Source of the DNA: Eledone cirrhosa | Taxonomy: Eukaryota | Length of the DNA: 28,208 bases | Assembly (NCBI GenBank): GCA_964016885.1 | Contig: CAXHJY010000496.1 | Location: 1-28,208, forward strand | Direction: 5' to 3' | The notes under the pieces: generated by a model | The model's database searches: none | Seen by the model: the letters and a program-made list of their open reading frames with translations, nothing else | Told to the model about the DNA's origin: nothing | Made by a program: the position numbers and the translations under genes | Shown here: positions 5,399 through 28,208 of the stretch, piece by piece | Position numbering within the stretch: position 1 is the first letter of the stretch | Layout of the letters: each line of letters starts with the position of its first letter

Positions 5399-5548
5399 CC
5401 CAAAGACGTACAGCACACCGCTGCATCCATCCACTCCACCTATCTATTTATTTACGCCTATAAGAATGGAGGTGGTTTAAAATACAACAGTGCGTAAAAC
5501 ATTCAAATATTAATTGAATAAGTACTCAATATGCCTAATTAGTGTGTA

Positions 5549-5590
<42 letters not shown>

Positions 5591-5593
<3 letters not shown>

Positions 5594-5734
5594 AGAGTTT
5601 ATATATAGATCAGAAAATCTGATGAGAAGATCGGGTTGAAACCAGGTCTATAGCATTTACATAGATCCTGAGCTACCCAGCTGTGAAACAGACGTAACTT
5701 TGTATAACCAATAAAGGCCATAATGTGAAACCTC

Positions 5735-5737
<3 letters not shown>
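5591..5737 (+). mobile_element. Hammerhead-bearing short element (family C) between two (TA)n tracts
   Basis: CTGATGA at 5619-5625, GAAAC at 5685-5689, GTA at 5694-5696. Homologous to the reverse complement of 18451-18565. Confidence 0.7.
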
Positions 5738-5788
<51 letters not shown>

Positions 5789-6026
5789 CATATATACAGT
5801 TAAAGAAAACATTATAAACACACAATGAGATGTAAAAAAACAAAATTCTTATTCACGTTTAGGAGGAAGTGCGGGTGTGAGAGATAGATAGATAGATAGA
5901 TATATTTCTTAATTAGCCACAGGGGCACAAAAGAAGGGGACAAATACAAAGGGGGAAGTTTACATACAATAAAAACGTGTAAAATGTTATCACAGATGGA
6001 ATTTAAAAGTTAGTCGAATTTCCCCA

Positions 6027-6027
<1 letters not shown>

Positions 6028-6071
<44 letters not shown>

Positions 6072-6158
6072 GAAATAGAGAGATAGATAGATAGAGGAAT
6101 AGAGAGATAGAGATAGATAGAGAGATGGATAGAGAGATAGAGATGGATAGAGAGATAG

Positions 6159-6216
<58 letters not shown>

Positions 6217-6305
6217 ATAGAGAGATAGATAGATAGAGGAATAGAGAGATAGATAGATAGAGATAGATAGAGAGATGGATAGAGAGATAGAGAGATAGAG
6301 AGAGA
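6028..6305. repeat. (GATA)n/(GA)n compound microsatellite
   Basis: Seen directly. Confidence 0.95.
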
Positions 6306-6416
6306 TCTTATTTCGACGACTAACAGTTCCGGGTTCAGAGTTGCAATTAACTTTTCGATTTTGAAAAAAGCCCCCCAAAACTTGAATTGAACTAACAGAG
6401 CCTATGTGAACCTACC

Positions 6417-6467
<51 letters not shown>

Positions 6468-6469
6468 TT

Positions 6470-6636
6470 ATGGGAAAAGAGAGGACCCCGACGGCTGACC
6501 TCCGGCCGTTTCGTCAGCTAGATCCGAACAGCCGTCGGGGTCCTGACTCTTATCCTATTACCCACTCTACTACCCTAAGTATTGAGTACTCTGGCATGTT
6601 ATGGTCCACCTGGTTTCTTACCACACTTTCAATGTT
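6470..6636 (+). mobile_element. Fold-back family A (A2), internal deletion in the right arm
   Basis: Left arm GGACCCCGACGGCTG...TTTCGTCAGCTAGATCC, shortened right arm, then the family tail ATTACCCACTCTACTACCCTAAGTATTGAGTACT...CTTACCACA. Preceded by (TA)n. Confidence 0.9.
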
Positions 6637-6736
6637 TACATCTCCACACACTCACATACATATATATATATTTACATATATATATATATATACATACATA
6701 TATGTAATAAGCTGTAATAAAAAATATATTGTCTCA

Positions 6737-7314: not shown

Positions 7315-7350
<36 letters not shown>

Positions 7351-7351
<1 letters not shown>

Positions 7352-7549
7352 ACGAAGGAAATGTGGTAAGGAACCAGGTGGACCATAACGCACCAAAGTA
7401 CTCAATACTTAGGGTAGTAGAGTAGGTAATAGGAACGAGTAGGACCCCGACGGCTGAGCTCAAGCCGTTTCGACGGCTAATTCTGGACATTCGAGTCCAG
7501 AATTAGCCGTCGAAACGGCTTGAGCTCAGCCGTCGGGGTCCTACTCGTT

Positions 7550-7554
<5 letters not shown>
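7351..7554 (-). mobile_element. Fold-back family A (A1), intact copy
   Basis: Perfect 60-bp arms at 7429-7488 and 7495-7554, 6-nt loop, 78-bp unique tail, (TA)n on both sides. Each arm carries the hammerhead 3' half GAAAC-GGC-loop-GCC-GTC-GGGGT. Confidence 0.92.
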
Positions 7555-7584
<30 letters not shown>

Positions 7585-7589
<5 letters not shown>

Positions 7590-7792
7590 AAAAGAGTCAG
7601 GGCCCCGACGGCTGAGCTCCGGCCGTTTTGACAGCTAGATCCGAACTGTTTGGATCTAGATGTCGAAACGACCGAAGCTCGGCTGTCAGGGTCCTGACTC
7701 TTTTCCTATTACCCACTCTACTATCCTAAGTGTCGAGTACTCTGCTGCGTTATGGTCCACCTGGAATCTTACCACACCTTCTTTCTTTCTTT
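7585..7792 (+). mobile_element. Fold-back family A (A2), diverged full copy
   Basis: Imperfect palindrome centred on GATCCGAACTGTTTGGATC, followed by the family tail. (TA)n on both sides. Confidence 0.9.
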
Positions 7793-8584
7793 ATATATAT
7801 ATATTTATATATATATATACTTAAGAAAATTAACAGAGGACAAGACAACGAACGGAAACAAAACAAAACGAAACGAAACGAAAAACAATTTTTTAATGGG
7901 AAACCTTAAAAAATTATTTAAAAAAATAAATATACAAACGAAGGACAGAGAACTTTATGATCATCGGCCTTTGAGGTGGACGTAGGCAGTTTCGACCCCT
8001 ATCAACAGTATTGCTAGTCCATTTGGGGTCAATGTTTGGTGTCCATAACACGTAAATCATGAGTGAAACAAATATATATATAATTAAATAGGAAGTATAT
8101 TGACTTCCTCTTAGTCGAATGTCCAAAAGGCAAACATATTTTGTGTTATTTCAACCAAGTTGATATATTGCTGATAGAGTCAGTTGACAGGCGGAGGGAC
8201 ATAGGTTAACAAGATTGTTATGCCAAAAATGCATTGGAACAAATTAAAAATGAAAGATCTCGCCAATAGCTGCAGGTATGTTACAACTCACAAGCATGTG
8301 CTTACATTAGCATAGCTGAAACTCTGCACGTAAATACCCAATACCGGATTTACATATAAGTTAACTAGGTTGAAGTCTCATATTCCACGTCTCACCCCCC
8401 CCCCCCATCGTGTAGTTTTAAATATATTTAAAAATATATATTAATATGTAGCTATTAAACACATGATAAAATTATATATTAATATATAGCTATGAAACTT
8501 ATGTTGGTAGAAAAATAGAATACTATAATCGTTATTAAATATATTTCTATTTTTACTGTTGATGTTATCTCAGGTTTAGAGGTC

Positions 8585-11083: not shown

Positions 11084-11194
11084 AATAATAATAATAATTG
11101 TTTCTATTTTCGGCACAAGATCAGCAATTACCCCAGTGTATTACTGGTACTTTATTTTATCGACCCCGTAAGGATGAAAGGCAAAGTTAACCTC
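11084..11194 (-). mobile_element. SINE (main family, short variant), 5'-truncated, with (ATT)n tail
   Basis: Central block is well conserved. Abuts the previous copy head to tail. Confidence 0.85.
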
Positions 11195-14114: not shown

Positions 14115-14309
14115 GGGTGCATACGTAACGTGATTAAAGCTTTTAAAATTAATTATTTCCTAATTTTAACTGATACGAAAATATAGACCTTAAATCGTGA
14201 ATATGCACCGGAGTTAAAGGTAAATACATACGGTTTCACCTAATTTGTGTTTGTGCGGGTGAACATAATATAGTACGTTACACATACACACACACACATA
14301 TATACATGT

Positions 14310-14496
14310 AACGAAGGATGTGCGGTAAGGAACCAGGTGGACCATAGCGCTCCAGAGTACTCATTACTTTGGGTAGTAGAGTGGGTAATAGGTAAAGAGT
14401 CAGAACCCCGACGGCAGAGCTCAAGCCGTTTCGACAGCGATTTAGGTCCAGAAATAGCTGTCGAAACGGCTTGAGCTCTACCGTCTTGACTCTTTT

Positions 14497-14500
<4 letters not shown>
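14310..14500 (-). mobile_element. Fold-back family A (A3)
   Basis: Tail on the left, palindrome centred on GATTTAGGTCCAGAAAT, (TA)n on the right. Confidence 0.9.
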
Positions 14501-14538
<38 letters not shown>

Positions 14539-18305: not shown

Positions 18306-18312
18306 ATATATT

Positions 18313-18430
18313 AATTGTTTCTACTTTTTGGCACAAGGCCACCAATTACCCAGTGCATTACTGGTACTTTATTTTATCGACCCCGTAAGGATGAAAGGCA
18401 AAGTTAACCCCGGCGGGATTTGAACTCAGA
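18313..18430 (-). mobile_element. SINE (main family, short variant), 5'-truncated
   Basis: Well-conserved central block and B-box. Confidence 0.88.
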
Positions 18431-20580: not shown

Positions 20581-20756
20581 TCTCTGGTATGGCGGCTAGA
20601 CAAGCACTAGCATGGTTGACTGGGTTTTACCTTTATGCATATGTTTCAATAGAATTGGAATGTCGTGAAGTGGGAGAGTCTATTTAGATAGTTTAAAATC
20701 TATTTTCTTTGTGCTTTCGACTGAGCATATGAATATATATATATATATATATATAT

Positions 20757-20889
20757 GAACGAGTAGGACCCCGACGGCTGAGCTCAAGCCGGCGGGGTCC
20801 TACTCGTTCCTATTACCCACTCTACTACCCTAAGTATTGAGTACTTTGGTGCGTTATGGTCCACCTGGTTCCTTACCACATTTCCTTCG

Positions 20890-20891
<2 letters not shown>
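20757..20891 (+). mobile_element. Fold-back family A (A1), hairpin centre deleted
   Basis: Tail nearly identical to that of the 7351 and 27511 copies. The palindrome is collapsed at CAAGCCG|GCGGGG. Confidence 0.92.
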
Positions 20892-20919
<28 letters not shown>

Positions 20920-20921
<2 letters not shown>

Positions 20922-21095
20922 CACAACGGAATTGTGGTAAGGAACCAGATGGACCATAACGTACCAGAGTACTCAAATTTTAGGGTAGTAGAGTGGGAAA
21001 TAGGAAAAAGTATGAGCCCGACGGCAGAGCTCAAGCCGTTTCGACGGCTAATTCTGTCCAGAAATAGCCGACGAAACGGCTTGAACTCTGCCGTC
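20920..21095 (-). mobile_element. Fold-back family A (A3), short arm ends at GTC
   Basis: Tail on the left, palindrome centred on TTCTGTCCAGAA. The right arm stops at CTGCCGTC. Confidence 0.9.
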
Positions 21096-22029: not shown

Positions 22030-22168
22030 AGTTACGTCCGTTTACGATCTGAGTTCAAATCTCGCCGAGGTTAACTTTGCCTTTCATCCTTACGGGGTCG
22101 ATAAAATAAAGCACCAGTAATGTACTGGGTAATTGCTGGCCTTGTGCCAAAAGCAGACACAATTATTA
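22030..22168 (+). mobile_element. SINE (main family, short variant)
   Basis: GAGTTCAAATCTCGCCGAGGTTAACTTTGCCTTTCATCCTTACGGGGTCGATAAAATAAAG...GGCCTTGTGCCAAAA. Confidence 0.88.
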
Positions 22169-23277: not shown

Positions 23278-23757
23278 ATAAAATATTAAAAAAATAATGG
23301 ATAAAACAATGAAACAGTTCCTTATATTAAACAAAAAAAAAATCCTTATTTAACGATCGTTTCTAGGATATATATGTATTAGAATTGGCATGCATATTCA
23401 ACAGATCTATGTACAAAATTATACAAAATTATACAAACTATCAAATTTAATATACATACCAACACATATATATGCCGTCTTCAGAAATAATTATTTCTGT
23501 TGAATATGCATGCCAATTCTAACACATATATATCCTAGAAACGATCGTTAAATAATGAACTTTTTTTGTTTAATATAAGGAACTGTTTCATTGTTTTATT
23601 CATTATTTTTTTAATATTTTATCTTGACTCTGTATTCCGTTTATCTTTCACCGAAAGTGATTTTTGAATGCATCTCTTCTTTCCATGATATCCGGATTAC
23701 ATTGAGTTCTTCATACGGATTGGACACTACCGTAAACTCTTGGTAGATTTATCTACA
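23278..23757 (+). mobile_element. Large fold-back element (family B): ~128-bp inverted arms plus 135-bp tail
   Basis: Near-identical inverted arms at 23278-23405 and 23496-23622, unique tail at 23623-23757, (TA)n on both sides. Confidence 0.85.
23346..23490 (-). ncRNA. Candidate complete type I hammerhead ribozyme with long stem II
   Basis: TTATTT-CTGAAGA-[~114 nt whose ends pair: GGCATATATATGTGTTGGTATGTATATT with AATATGCATGCCAATTCTAATACATATATATCC]-GAAAC-GATC-GTT-AAATAA. 6-bp stem I and palindromic stem III. Confidence 0.7.
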
Positions 23758-23793
23758 TATATATATAATATATATATTATATATATATTATAT

Positions 23794-23992
23794 TAAAAGA
23801 TTCAAGGACCCCGATGGCTGAGCTCCGGCCGTTTCGACAGCTAGATCCGAAAAGTTTGGATCTAGCTGTCGAAACGGATGGAGCTCAGCCGTCGGGGTCC
23901 TGACACTTTTCCTATTACCAACTCTACTACTCTAACTATCGAGTACCCTGGTGCGTTATGGTCCATCTGGTTCCTTACCACACTTTCTTTGT

Positions 23993-23993
<1 letters not shown>
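23794..23993 (+). mobile_element. Fold-back family A (A2), full copy
   Basis: Palindrome centred on GATCCGAAAAGTTTGGATC, family tail, (TA)n on both sides. Confidence 0.92.
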
Positions 23994-24025
<32 letters not shown>

Positions 24026-24862: not shown

Positions 24863-24889
24863 AGAAGACACTCGGTATGAAATGGAAAC

Positions 24890-24953
24890 AAAATAATGTT
24901 TCTACTTTAAGCACAAGGCCTGCAATTTGAAGGGGAGGGGAAAGTCGATCGAC
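24890..24953 (-). mobile_element. SINE (main family) 3' fragment
   Basis: GTTTCTACTTTAAGCACAAGGCCTGCAATTTGAAGGGGAGGGGAAAGTCGAT. Confidence 0.7.
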
Positions 24954-24984
24954 TGTCAATACACACACACACACACACATATAT

Positions 24985-25300
24985 TTATTAAAATAACAGA
25001 TTAAAGTTTAAGCAAAGAATCGCTGCTTTCACCCTTAACGGGATCTTCAGAAGATCCCGTTAAGGGTGAAAGCAGCGATTCTTTGCCAATAAGAAACACA
25101 CGCACCAGTTGCTTTCACTTCAACTTATTTTAATAAATTTATAAATTTAGGAATTTATAAATTTCCGGTTGGTTGGTTCCACAACCAGATGGTTGTTTAT
25201 ATATTGTCAAAGTTCTTTCGTCACACATTCTGTGACCTCTTCAGTGACTGGGGATTCTTTTCTTTGTTTTTGTGCCTCTCCTTTGTTCTGTCCTACGCCA
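24985..25300 (+). mobile_element. Fold-back element (family D) with perfect 37-bp palindrome
   Basis: Arms at 25012-25048 and 25050-25086 with a 1-nt spacer. The minus strand across the centre reads CTGAAGA-TCCC-GTTAA-GGGT-GAAAG. The downstream region is homologous to 15652-15835. Confidence 0.8.
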
Positions 25301-25478
25301 TCTTGTTTCTCTTGAGAAACAAGAGCTTATTTTGCGGGTGATATGGCGCATGTCTTTCTGGCATGACACCCATAATTTTGATTATCTTAATTTTGAATAT
25401 AGATATATAAATACGGCTCCTTAATTGTAGAGCTAACTCTGTTGAAAGGATTTGACTGCTGTTTCTAGTTGTCGATAA

Positions 25479-25645
25479 CCCAACTCTTACACGGGAGGAC
25501 GCCGTCCGTGCAATTTTTGCTCGGAGGAAACTTTACAAATGCTGTTTTCGACGGACCAACTCCTAAACAAGAAAGACAAACTGGTAACTGCATGCAAACA
25601 CAGATTGCCTAGGACTTACCTCGCCCTCAAACCCCATAATGACCC
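25479..25645 (+). mobile_element. Penelope-like element ORF C-terminal remnant (end of GIY-YIG endonuclease region)
   Basis: Manual translation PNSYTGGRRPCNFCSEETLQMLFSTDQLLNKKDKLVTACKHRLPRTYL matches, from memory, the PLE C-terminal pattern Y-x5-C-x-LC-xx-EK...LLNKRxEL-xxx-C-R/K-H. No start codon, and it is absent from the ORF track. Confidence 0.72.
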
Positions 25646-25678
25646 GGGGGGTGGGGGGTGGGGGTGGGGGGTGGGGGG
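25646..25678 (+). repeat. (G5-6T)n tract, G-quadruplex-capable
   Basis: Five G-runs separated by single T residues. Confidence 0.8.
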
Positions 25679-26079
25679 TTAGACAAGGGCTGTAACACCC
25701 CATTTGCCGACTTTGTAATGGGTAACCCCTGCTTGCAAAGGTAGACGTAAGATCTTCTTTTATATCATTTTATCGTTTCCTCTATATTTCCTTCTTCCCC
25801 CATCCCTTCCTAGTCCTTCCAACCCAGTCCAGTCCTCCTTCTTTGTCGTCGTCCTTTTCACTTTCTCGCCCACCCGAGGCAGCCCCTCGGTCCTTTGTAG
25901 CCTCAGTACCCCCACCCCCTATTCTATGATAGAATTGGCCGACTCCGCTTTTTATAGCAGATGTGATAGACCCCATATACTTGCTGTCTTATCCAATGAC
26001 TGCCCCATTTCCGTGCTTTCTACATTTCTTAGTGGTATCTCTGCTTTAATTTCTCGTATATCAGTATTTATTGGGGGGG

Positions 26080-26332
26080 GGGGGATTCTGAATTAATTTT
26101 CCGCATCAAATTTTTCATATACCTCGTACGAGCATTTATGTAGTTTGCACTAGAATTATGTATCGTAACGGCACCCTTAGAGATAGTATTAGTATTCATT
26201 TTCGGGATTCTGAATTATTATTTCGTATTGGTTTATTTTTTGCACTGGGTGATTGCTAACCTTGTGCCTAGAGTAGAAACAATTATTTCGTATTAGTTTC
26301 GGGACTCTGAATTATTATTTCGTGGTAGTTTC
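26080..26332. repeat. Dispersed direct repeat GGGA(T/C)TCTGAATTATTATTTCGT x3 with an embedded SINE tail
   Basis: Copies near 26082, 26204 and 26301. A SINE 3' piece TGCACTGGGTGATTGCTAACCTTGTGCC lies at 26241-26287. Confidence 0.7.
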
Positions 26333-26775
26333 TTTAGTATTTTGGCCCCCCACCCCCACTTGTTGACCTGTCACCGTAAGATATACTCGGTTGATTACTA
26401 CTAACTCTTAAAATGGTCTCATTACAATTCCGTCCCACCTAGTAAACTTTTCTATAGTTTAGCAGTTCCAGTGAGAGACTTGATGGCTGTCGTTAGGGAA
26501 TAGTAACCAGAAATTGTTTTTCTATATTTTTAACATTCTTGGTATTCTTCTATATATTTACTCCATATCCCCCCTCCCTAGTATACTTGCTTGACCTCCT
26601 GCCCTTCTGTAGTTGGTACTATAAACGCACGACTAGGTTTCCTCCACTCCCTCTCTCTTCTACTGGCAGGTTCAGCTACCTCTTCCTTCCACAAATTGCC
26701 ATGATAGAATTATGTGTCTCAACAACAAACTTTTGACCAATCCTTGTGACAATCACTTTTACCATATATAGAATT

Positions 26776-26863
26776 ACCCCCTGAGAAGCTCGGCTATTCA
26801 TATACCAGGATAAAAATGTTCATTTAGTCCAGAACTAGCCGTCGGGGTCCTACTCGTTCCTAT
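26776..26863 (+). mobile_element. Family A-related copy retaining the hammerhead 5' half
   Basis: ACCCC-CTGAGAA-GCTCGGCTATTC...GTCCAGAACTAGCCGTC-GGGGTCCTACTCGTTCCTA then (TA)n. The GAAAC segment between the two AGCCGTC repeats is missing. Confidence 0.7.
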
Positions 26864-26867
26864 ATAC

Positions 26868-26910
<43 letters not shown>

Positions 26911-27496: not shown

Positions 27497-27510
27497 ATAT
27501 ATATATATAT

Positions 27511-27706
27511 AACGAAGGCAATGTGGTAAGGAACCAGGTGGACCATAACGCACCAAAGTACTCAATACTTAGGGTAGTAGAGTGGGTAATAGGAACGAGT
27601 AGGACCCCGAAGGCTGAGCTCAAGCCGTTTCGACGGCTAATTCTGGACTCAGAATTAGCCGTCGAAACGGCTTGAGCTCAGCCTTCGGGGTCTTACTTGT
27701 TCCTAT
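27511..27706 (-). mobile_element. Fold-back family A (A1), full copy
   Basis: Nearly identical to 7351-7554, with a shorter apex (TTCTGGACTCAGAA). (TA)n on both sides. Confidence 0.92.
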
Positions 27707-28208
27707 ATATATATATATATATAATGCTTTCACATGAGAGGTTCTTCGTATAAATTATAACAACCTCTGAGCCACACAACCCAGTGACAGAGACGTAGAA
27801 GATTGCTAGACTTGCTAGAAATAGCAGTCTATTCTCCCACAAATCACACTTTAACATTTTATAAAAGAAAACATTGGATAATGTTATTCAGAGTTCACTG
27901 TACATTAGAAAATGGAAAAATAAAAATCTTAGCTACGAGGTTCTCTTCCAAGCCACGGTGAAGATCTTTGCAAACGGCATTGCCTTTTTTCAGAACTTCT
28001 TAAGAACGCAAAACCACATGTGGGGTGAGAGAGGAGTGAATTTTCCACGATAGGTCTGGCTCTATGACAGCCTGGGGTTAGTCAAGATGAAAAAGAACTA
28101 AACTTTTGTATGGTGAGCAAATAAAGTCGTCCCACGTGCTGGCCTCCCCACAGCCTCAGCGGACAGAATGGAGAAGGCGTTTCCCCGAGGATGGTTGTTG
28201 TTCACTGT

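Follow-up and report, generated by a model that had tools for sequence, protein, structure and literature searches.

A 5'-truncated Hydra-like Penelope copy in Eledone cirrhosa and the probable loss and return of a core pair in the hammerhead of its lineage

The window considered here, the whole stretch of 28,208 nt analysed from the Eledone cirrhosa assembly, carries towards its right-hand end a truncated Penelope copy, in which the tail of an endonuclease gene, a 3' UTR and a type I hammerhead follow one another and run into a (TA)n microsatellite (Table 1). This copy represents the 3' 1.38 kb of a 3.53-kb unit, is truncated on its 5' side and displays the short type of end, the facing inverted arm being absent. 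Longer copies elsewhere extend leftward into a frame encoding a GIY-YIG endonuclease and a reverse transcriptase (RT). The initial annotation, made from the letters of the window, had assigned the hammerhead to a family of short palindromic arms (family A) and supposed that the sequence to its left might be parental too; this held back to position 25480, reaching the end of the endonuclease gene. Left of that position the window DNA matched other repeat families, and family A identity was rejected there for this reason. General repeat finding in the window was dominated by microsatellites. The window copy itself is an ordinary dead fragment.

Table 1. Coordinates of the truncated Penelope copy and of its parts in the window
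Feature	Position	Strand	Basis or remark
Truncated Penelope copy	25480..26863	+	Aligned, from 25480 on, with full units L044 and L050 and with many loci
GIY-YIG endonuclease region, C-terminal 55 codons (CxxC ... E ... N ... CxH)	25482..25646	+	Translation corresponds to the end of the intact 784-codon frame
Element 3' UTR	25647..26775	+	80-90% identical to this region in other copies
Hammerhead stem I, 5' strand ACCCC	26776..26780	+	Pairs with 26844-26848
Core 5' strand, positions 3-9, CUGAGAA (DNA CTGAGAA)	26781..26787	+	C3-A8 mismatch form of the family core UUGANAA
Stem II: G10.1-C11.1, CGGCUA/UAGCCG, inner loop of about 40 nt	26788..26843	+	Three pairs with two-sided changes between subfamilies
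Fused AGCCGTC repeat, junction of the 23-nt deletion	26837..26843	+	Predicted cut site would follow 26843
Stem I 3' strand GGGGT (26844-26848) and short 3' end	26844..26862	+	About 17-19 nt past the predicted cut; CCTA at 26859-26862
(TA)n microsatellite target	26861..26906		Tandem Repeats Finder; other copies share the target

Several other repeats were found within or beside the copy. Its 3' UTR contains, at 26241-26292, a 45-50 nt repeat of another family, which looks like a later insertion and has further copies at 1150-1194, 11093-11138, 18312-18357, 22121-22167 and 24888-24926. Adjoining the copy on the left, a dispersed repeat (25083-25310, minus strand) with a canonical minimal hammerhead-like motif (CTGAAGA ... 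GAAA near 25245-25215) was present in at least 8 unrelated loci at 87-95% identity and likely belongs to a different Penelope-type family. A short palindrome of a third repeat family (24979-25086) displayed a CTGAAGA ... GAAA motif as well, its arms being 93-99% identical in many loci. CTGATGA followed by GAAAC occurred in repeat-like context at 5619 (plus strand) and 18542 (minus strand), possibly marking other hammerhead families.

Judged from its sequence, the parental element is a Hydra-clade-like Penelope retrotransposon, a known kind. A protein search returned many stop-to-stop open frames of 784 codons, several of them in head-to-tail arrays. The single ORF, with its ATG 190 nt past the predicted cut, encodes a product of 717 aa, RT first and GIY-YIG endonuclease at the C-terminus, with YRDD and VIY...YIG motifs. 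This protein had 2,052 homologues at about 40% identity over the full length, the top match carrying PF01541; a Pfam scan of two element proteins returned 0 families. The translation harbored the Hydra motifs SDKTGN (DKT), CNCPDRSIC (CxCx5C linker), CNLC (CxxC) and CKH (CxH), with a conserved E and N within the CxxC/CxH region and, as judged by eye, no CCHH. The clade was assigned by motifs, and the Hydra proteins were compared by eye over the first 400 residues given in File S4 of PMC8557442, where Hydra-1_Obim was colinear with the 717-aa protein. The C-terminal position of the endonuclease led us to reject the Naiad clade. Copies are inserted into (TA)n, occur in tandem and can carry inverted 5' arms and a tail.

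In the youngest subfamily, 18 units of 3,528-3,553 bp differed from each other by 0-40 substitutions, and the units on contigs C1 and C22 by none, which suggests that the element has recently been active and is likely still spreading. The two RNA-labelled runs among the seven runs covered 5-9% of words, scraps of the 3' UTR only, and left the ribozyme uncovered. In run X3, whose kind is unrecorded and which may derive from the assembly's own sample, the letter of the U3-to-C change took about 25% of the depth, against 23.5% in the assembly. Within the arrays at L058 (G000:C1:377710500-377720499) and L039-L042, neighbouring units were closer to one another (2-7 substitutions) than to most other arrays, and both units of L058 share one frameshift; such similarity is compatible with local duplication and also with copying that runs round a circular or multimeric RNA.

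The hammerhead of the window copy belongs to an abundant family. The pieces named in the initial annotation (ACCCC, CTGAGAA, CGGCTA, TAGCCG, AGCCGTC and GGGGT) all stand where it placed them, with the stem II letters at 26788 (G), 26791-26796 (CGGCTA) and 26836-26841 (TAGCCG), and the segment starting at 26776 is indeed the 5' half of a family A type I hammerhead with stems I and II paired as proposed. When the 126-nt stretch 26740-26865 was searched against its own genome (3.0 Gb), 40 of 1,382 candidates were scored, and all of these full or 5'-side matches were 90-100% identical. Given these matches and the 1,118 genome-wide occurrences of the 19-nt motif CCCCTGAGAAGCTCGGCTA, against 0 for the reversed control, the feature is not due to chance. 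Some matches share the deletion of the window copy, and others carry GAAAC-GGCT-TGAGCTC-AGCC-GTC directly after the same 5' half. As anticipated, the segment is joined to family A arms elsewhere, an undeleted GAAAC/stem III arm being present in L019-L022 and L024-L030; complete natural copies with both halves thus make it needless to reconstruct a full hammerhead from separate pieces.

A search that left the ten core letters free returned 5,437 matches to the 5' half genome-wide. This count bears directly on the idea that the window copy is an uncommon remnant of a parental element since lost, whose core was the canonical CUGANGA. Other family A copies in the window are short palindromes without the 5' half, as that idea would have it; the 5,437 5' halves, the intact tandem arrays, the absence of canonical cores among the first 100 of those matches and a mere 9 exact C3-G8 motifs among the 52 with G8 refute it, and we leave it practically no probability.

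The family core is UUGANAA, a known U3-A8 covariant, and the window subfamily carries a C3-A8 mismatch. CTGAGAA does lie one letter from CTGANGA, as had been remarked, but it is TTGAGAA (U3-A8), the state carried by most of the family, to which it is truly related. Exact motifs numbered 5,070 for U3-A8, 1,559 for C3-A8 and 52 for G8 genome-wide, these being counts of motif copies, often two per insertion, in which decayed subfamilies are undercounted. A Watson-Crick 3-8 pair is present in 5,070 copies and in family B (a more distant family also found in the window, with U3-A8 in 89 of the first 100 of its 261 matches), and is lacking in the window subfamily, with its 1,559 C3-A8 copies. By hand count of the first 100 of the 5,437 matches, all from the start of contig C1, position 3 was U in 76, C in 23 and G in 1. 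Position 7 was G in 79, T in 12 and A in 9 (C also occurs in the family), and U4, A6, A8 and A9 were found in all 100, G5 in 98 and G10.1 in 97; variation at position 7 between fixed neighbours indicates that the core register is fixed. Nine or ten scattered copies (G000:C2:54380596, C1:91387781, C1:237402073 and 6 more) displayed canonical C3-G8, derived from the mismatch state, with no founded subfamily apparent.

Pairing around the core was examined in 37 natural intact copies, picked from 78 complete ones to span the subfamilies. The three helices, with stem I open, had 88% of 851 cells paired, against 26-55% in slid controls. Stem I was paired in 97% of cells with no compensatory change; two-sided changes affected three pairs, all in stem II and none in stems I and III, and they mostly mark the split between family A (CGGCUA/UAGCCG) and family B (CAGCUA/UAGCUG), hence few events. 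The 10.2-11.2 pair was formed in only 3 of the 37 rows. GAAA, A15.1-U16.1, G10.1-C11.1 and the NUH triplet were present in intact copies, whose rows had been picked by a pattern asking for most of those core letters; the window copy has neither GAAA nor stem III and so lacks the three-helix arrangement. No Rfam hammerhead match was obtained in the window at gathering score, the weak hits being (TA)n artefacts, nor on the intact L050:5500-5750 at E up to 10. A family with over 20,000 ribozyme arms in a single genome is thus overlooked by Rfam and by searches for CUGANGA cores with short loops.

The loss of GAAA and stem III between two AGCCGTC repeats, read earlier from the letters, removed exactly 23 nt. 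Deleted junctions (198 exact copies) amounted to about 0.9% of the intact ones (21,061), and uniqueness of the deletion to the window copy was rejected on that count. It was also rejected as a subfamily mark, since the 14 deleted rows did not form one clade (p-AU 2e-48) and facing arms are intact: among 30 deleted loci, this was the case in 20 of the 20 having another arm, and the 10 others had no second arm. The deletion is likely a recurrent copy-level slip across the small hairpin between the 7-nt direct repeats, which may have occurred either during insertion or in later replication. By hand count, the youngest subfamily contributed 6 deleted junctions in the first 100, versus 37 of the first 100 5' halves, so that deletions look rarer there; age and the imperfect repeat are inseparable as causes.

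Folding, computed with one representative per core type and yielding modest z-scores (-1.99, -0.96), set the window subfamily apart from the youngest one. In the former, the two AGCCGUC repeats allow a competing fold predicted to lie about 4 kcal/mol below the hammerhead in L014, the same fold being obtained in L025. In the youngest subfamily, A10.2 is paired, the second repeat has the sequence AGCUGUC, and the minimum-energy and centroid structures are both the hammerhead; no other abundant family A type tested had the hammerhead as its fold of lowest energy. The older GUU types and family B come close to the hammerhead fold, lacking only G10.1-C11.1. Among published mutants, the single changes C3G and G8C abolish cleavage in the Anolis Penelope ribozyme (PMC11167929), and single 3-8 changes in a type III construct give low activity that only a G-C swap rescues (PMC9901934), according to the parts of these papers that we used; from this last result U3-A8 may be weak too. 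Our literature search, mostly outside subscription journals, found no measurement of cleavage by a C3-A8 mismatch. The C3-A8 core is predicted to be impaired, and the hammerhead of the window copy would then be dead twice, by the loss of GAAA and stem III and by the mismatch of its subfamily. The rebuilt RNA proposed in the initial annotation would also carry C3-A8 and is predicted to misfold, so that a negative assay on it would be uninformative against the family ribozyme.

The order of the core states was read from a tree of 95 of 132 distinct 5' halves with at least 265 nt of homologous upstream sequence, core letters excluded, 11 of 32 family B rows serving as outgroup. Rows were chosen by core type and not at random, and the C3 group was defined once a first tree had been seen. 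At the base of family A the tree gave no resolution, U3 and C3 rows occurring there together. Starred nodes above this base formed a ladder from C3-GUU rows to C3-GCU rows (the window subfamily), and 33 U3 rows, the youngest subfamily included, were nested inside this C3 grade at starred nodes; a single clade for the 53 C3 rows was rejected (p-AU 9.6e-5). G7 and C10.2, absent from the older U3 rows, are common to the C3 grade and its closest U3 descendants, which makes back-mutation a simpler explanation than recombination. Median end branches were 0.022 for C3-GCU, 0.026 and 0.029 for the U3-GCU groups, 0.005 for the youngest subfamily and 0.136 for family B, of which only the last two are set apart, contrary to a tidy succession; the overlap of the C3-GCU and U3-GCU values means that the order rests on nesting and not on age.

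C3-A8 elements were full-length. C3-A8 stood at both unit ends in 5 of 20 long loci and U3 at both ends in another 5 of 20, and L246 has an unbroken 740-codon frame with C3-A8. L044 was rejected as an intact C3-A8 element because its 794-codon frame is shifted at the N-terminus. Given the nesting, the lineage probably spread while its ribozyme was impaired and regained the 3-8 pair afterwards: the passage through C3-A8 and the return to U3-A8 are well supported as a history of sequences, and the biochemistry is predicted.

An impaired phase would not have existed if the C3-A8 core cleaved well enough, through a C-A wobble or a register shift pairing G7 with C3. Position 7 is G in nearly all C3 copies and could serve a shifted C3-G pair, the mismatch state lasted through two subfamilies (GUU and GCU at 10.1-10.3), and some natural core variants keep low activity, as described in part of PMC3088659. 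However, G7 also occurs in the descendant U3 subfamilies and may be just inherited, the published single 3-8 changes were inactive or low, and the lowest-energy fold of the subfamily is not the hammerhead; we regard a working C3-A8 core as unlikely. The reading that we prefer and find quite probable is that of a 5'-truncated Hydra-like Penelope copy with a ribozyme predicted to be doubly dead, from a lineage that underwent a mismatch phase and later restored the pair. A more ambitious version can be offered tentatively, at somewhat under an even chance: an autonomous lineage would have spent a long phase with a broken, misfolding hammerhead, leaving more than 1,000 copies, before a three-step rebuild (U3-A8 pair, a stem II base pair, removal of the competing fold) preceded the present burst. 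If true, this rebuild would be an in vivo record of Penelope ribozymes being dispensable for jumping and yet favoured in the long run.

How copies could spread with little cleavage is suggested by their ends. Among 216 distinct arms, two classes of end stand out, with 88 arms terminating 16-19 nt past the predicted cut and 92 terminating 96-104 nt past it. Another 16 continue into the following unit or for more than 200 nt, and the remaining 20 have other ends; facing arms usually combine one short and one tailed end. In PAc, a Poseidon element of Anolis carolinensis, two RT start sites make the tail, both target strands are extended and ribozyme mutants insert in vitro (Frangieh et al. 2024, PMC11167929, as far as the portion consulted goes). 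In the proposed mechanism, the RT/endonuclease would nick (TA)n and initiate copying at either of two positions beyond the ribozyme cut, both target strands being extended as in PAc. Since both start sites lie downstream of the cut, the template RNA would be uncut or religated there, and a cleavage-poor lineage could spread. Early stops inside loop II would produce the short palindromic arms, and the excess of 3' junctions (21,061) over 5' halves (some 5,400-6,700) indicates that such palindromes are common; the window copy is a longer, short-end product without facing arm. The mismatch would have lowered cleavage without stopping the spread, a subsequent C3-to-U change would have re-established the pair, and the youngest subfamily would have shed the competing fold through two more changes. 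In the 28-kb window, seven clusters of short family A and B arms, cut off inside or after loop II, were observed (3789, 6435-6628, 7315-7800, 14280-14534, 20727-21095, 23753-23998 and 27503-27723), most of them consisting of one short and one tailed arm facing each other.

The same ends could also be read in terms of a hammerhead that, in the whole family, is vestigial or serves only as a structural signal, with the changes at 3, 7, 10.2 and 16.3 carried along neutrally by one master copy after another. In favour of this, the cut site lies upstream of both end classes, the PAc ribozyme mutants insert normally in vitro, C-to-T is a common change, the long loop II has no recognisable tertiary contact and Rfam gave no match. 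Against this, the core stayed fixed while position 7 and loop II diverged between families A and B, three stem II pairs are compensatory (few events), and the hammerhead of the youngest subfamily is the minimum-energy and centroid structure, which makes a vestigial hammerhead decidedly unlikely in our judgement. On our preferred reading, the family offers natural paired, mismatched and re-paired versions of a ribozyme in one lineage, with copy counts for each and intact young elements. Such a natural variant series could test whether Penelope ribozymes matter: the role of the hammerhead in Penelope-like elements has been called unclear (PMC8557442, in the part seen), and in one in vitro system it was unnecessary for insertion (PMC11167929).

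Compared with PAc, the Eledone element shares the two end classes downstream of the cut that define a tail, the extension of both strands and an ATG downstream of or at the ribozyme, and differs by a tail of about 80 nt, versus 30-40 nt, and by its core, which is C3-G8 in PAc (PMC11167929); PAc was tested in vitro and the Eledone element is known here from sequence alone. The U3-A8 core is a known natural covariant (Perreault et al. 2011, PMC3088659), with about 1,300 U3-A8 hits in the Cercyon Penelope elements of Schistosoma mansoni (Cervera and De la Pena 2014, PMC4209133). Core covariation, type I topology and a palindromic loop III are common to these variants and to the Eledone family, whose bulged stem II recalls Drosophila virilis Penelope; clade and host differ, and stem III is full here instead of minimal. 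The consulted parts of both papers report neither an amplified C3-A8 lineage nor a regain of the pair. With the Hydra clade (Craig et al. 2021, PMC8557442, from the sections and files used), the element shares a single RT and C-terminal GIY-YIG frame of about 710 aa, the DKT, CxCx5C linker, CxxC and CxH motifs, the (TA)n target, a hammerhead near the 3' end and tandem and inverted structures. It differs by its 3.53-kb unit with a 1.1-kb 3' UTR, the described families being generally under 3 kb (a tendency, not part of the clade definition), and by RWR at the place of RWK. All 26 rows of File S2 have CUGANGA cores and short loops, in contrast to UUGANAA or CUGANAA, a loop II of about 40 nt and a stem III of 5-6 bp in the Eledone family. 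Both the kind of element and the covariant core were already known, and what is new is their combination for the Hydra clade.
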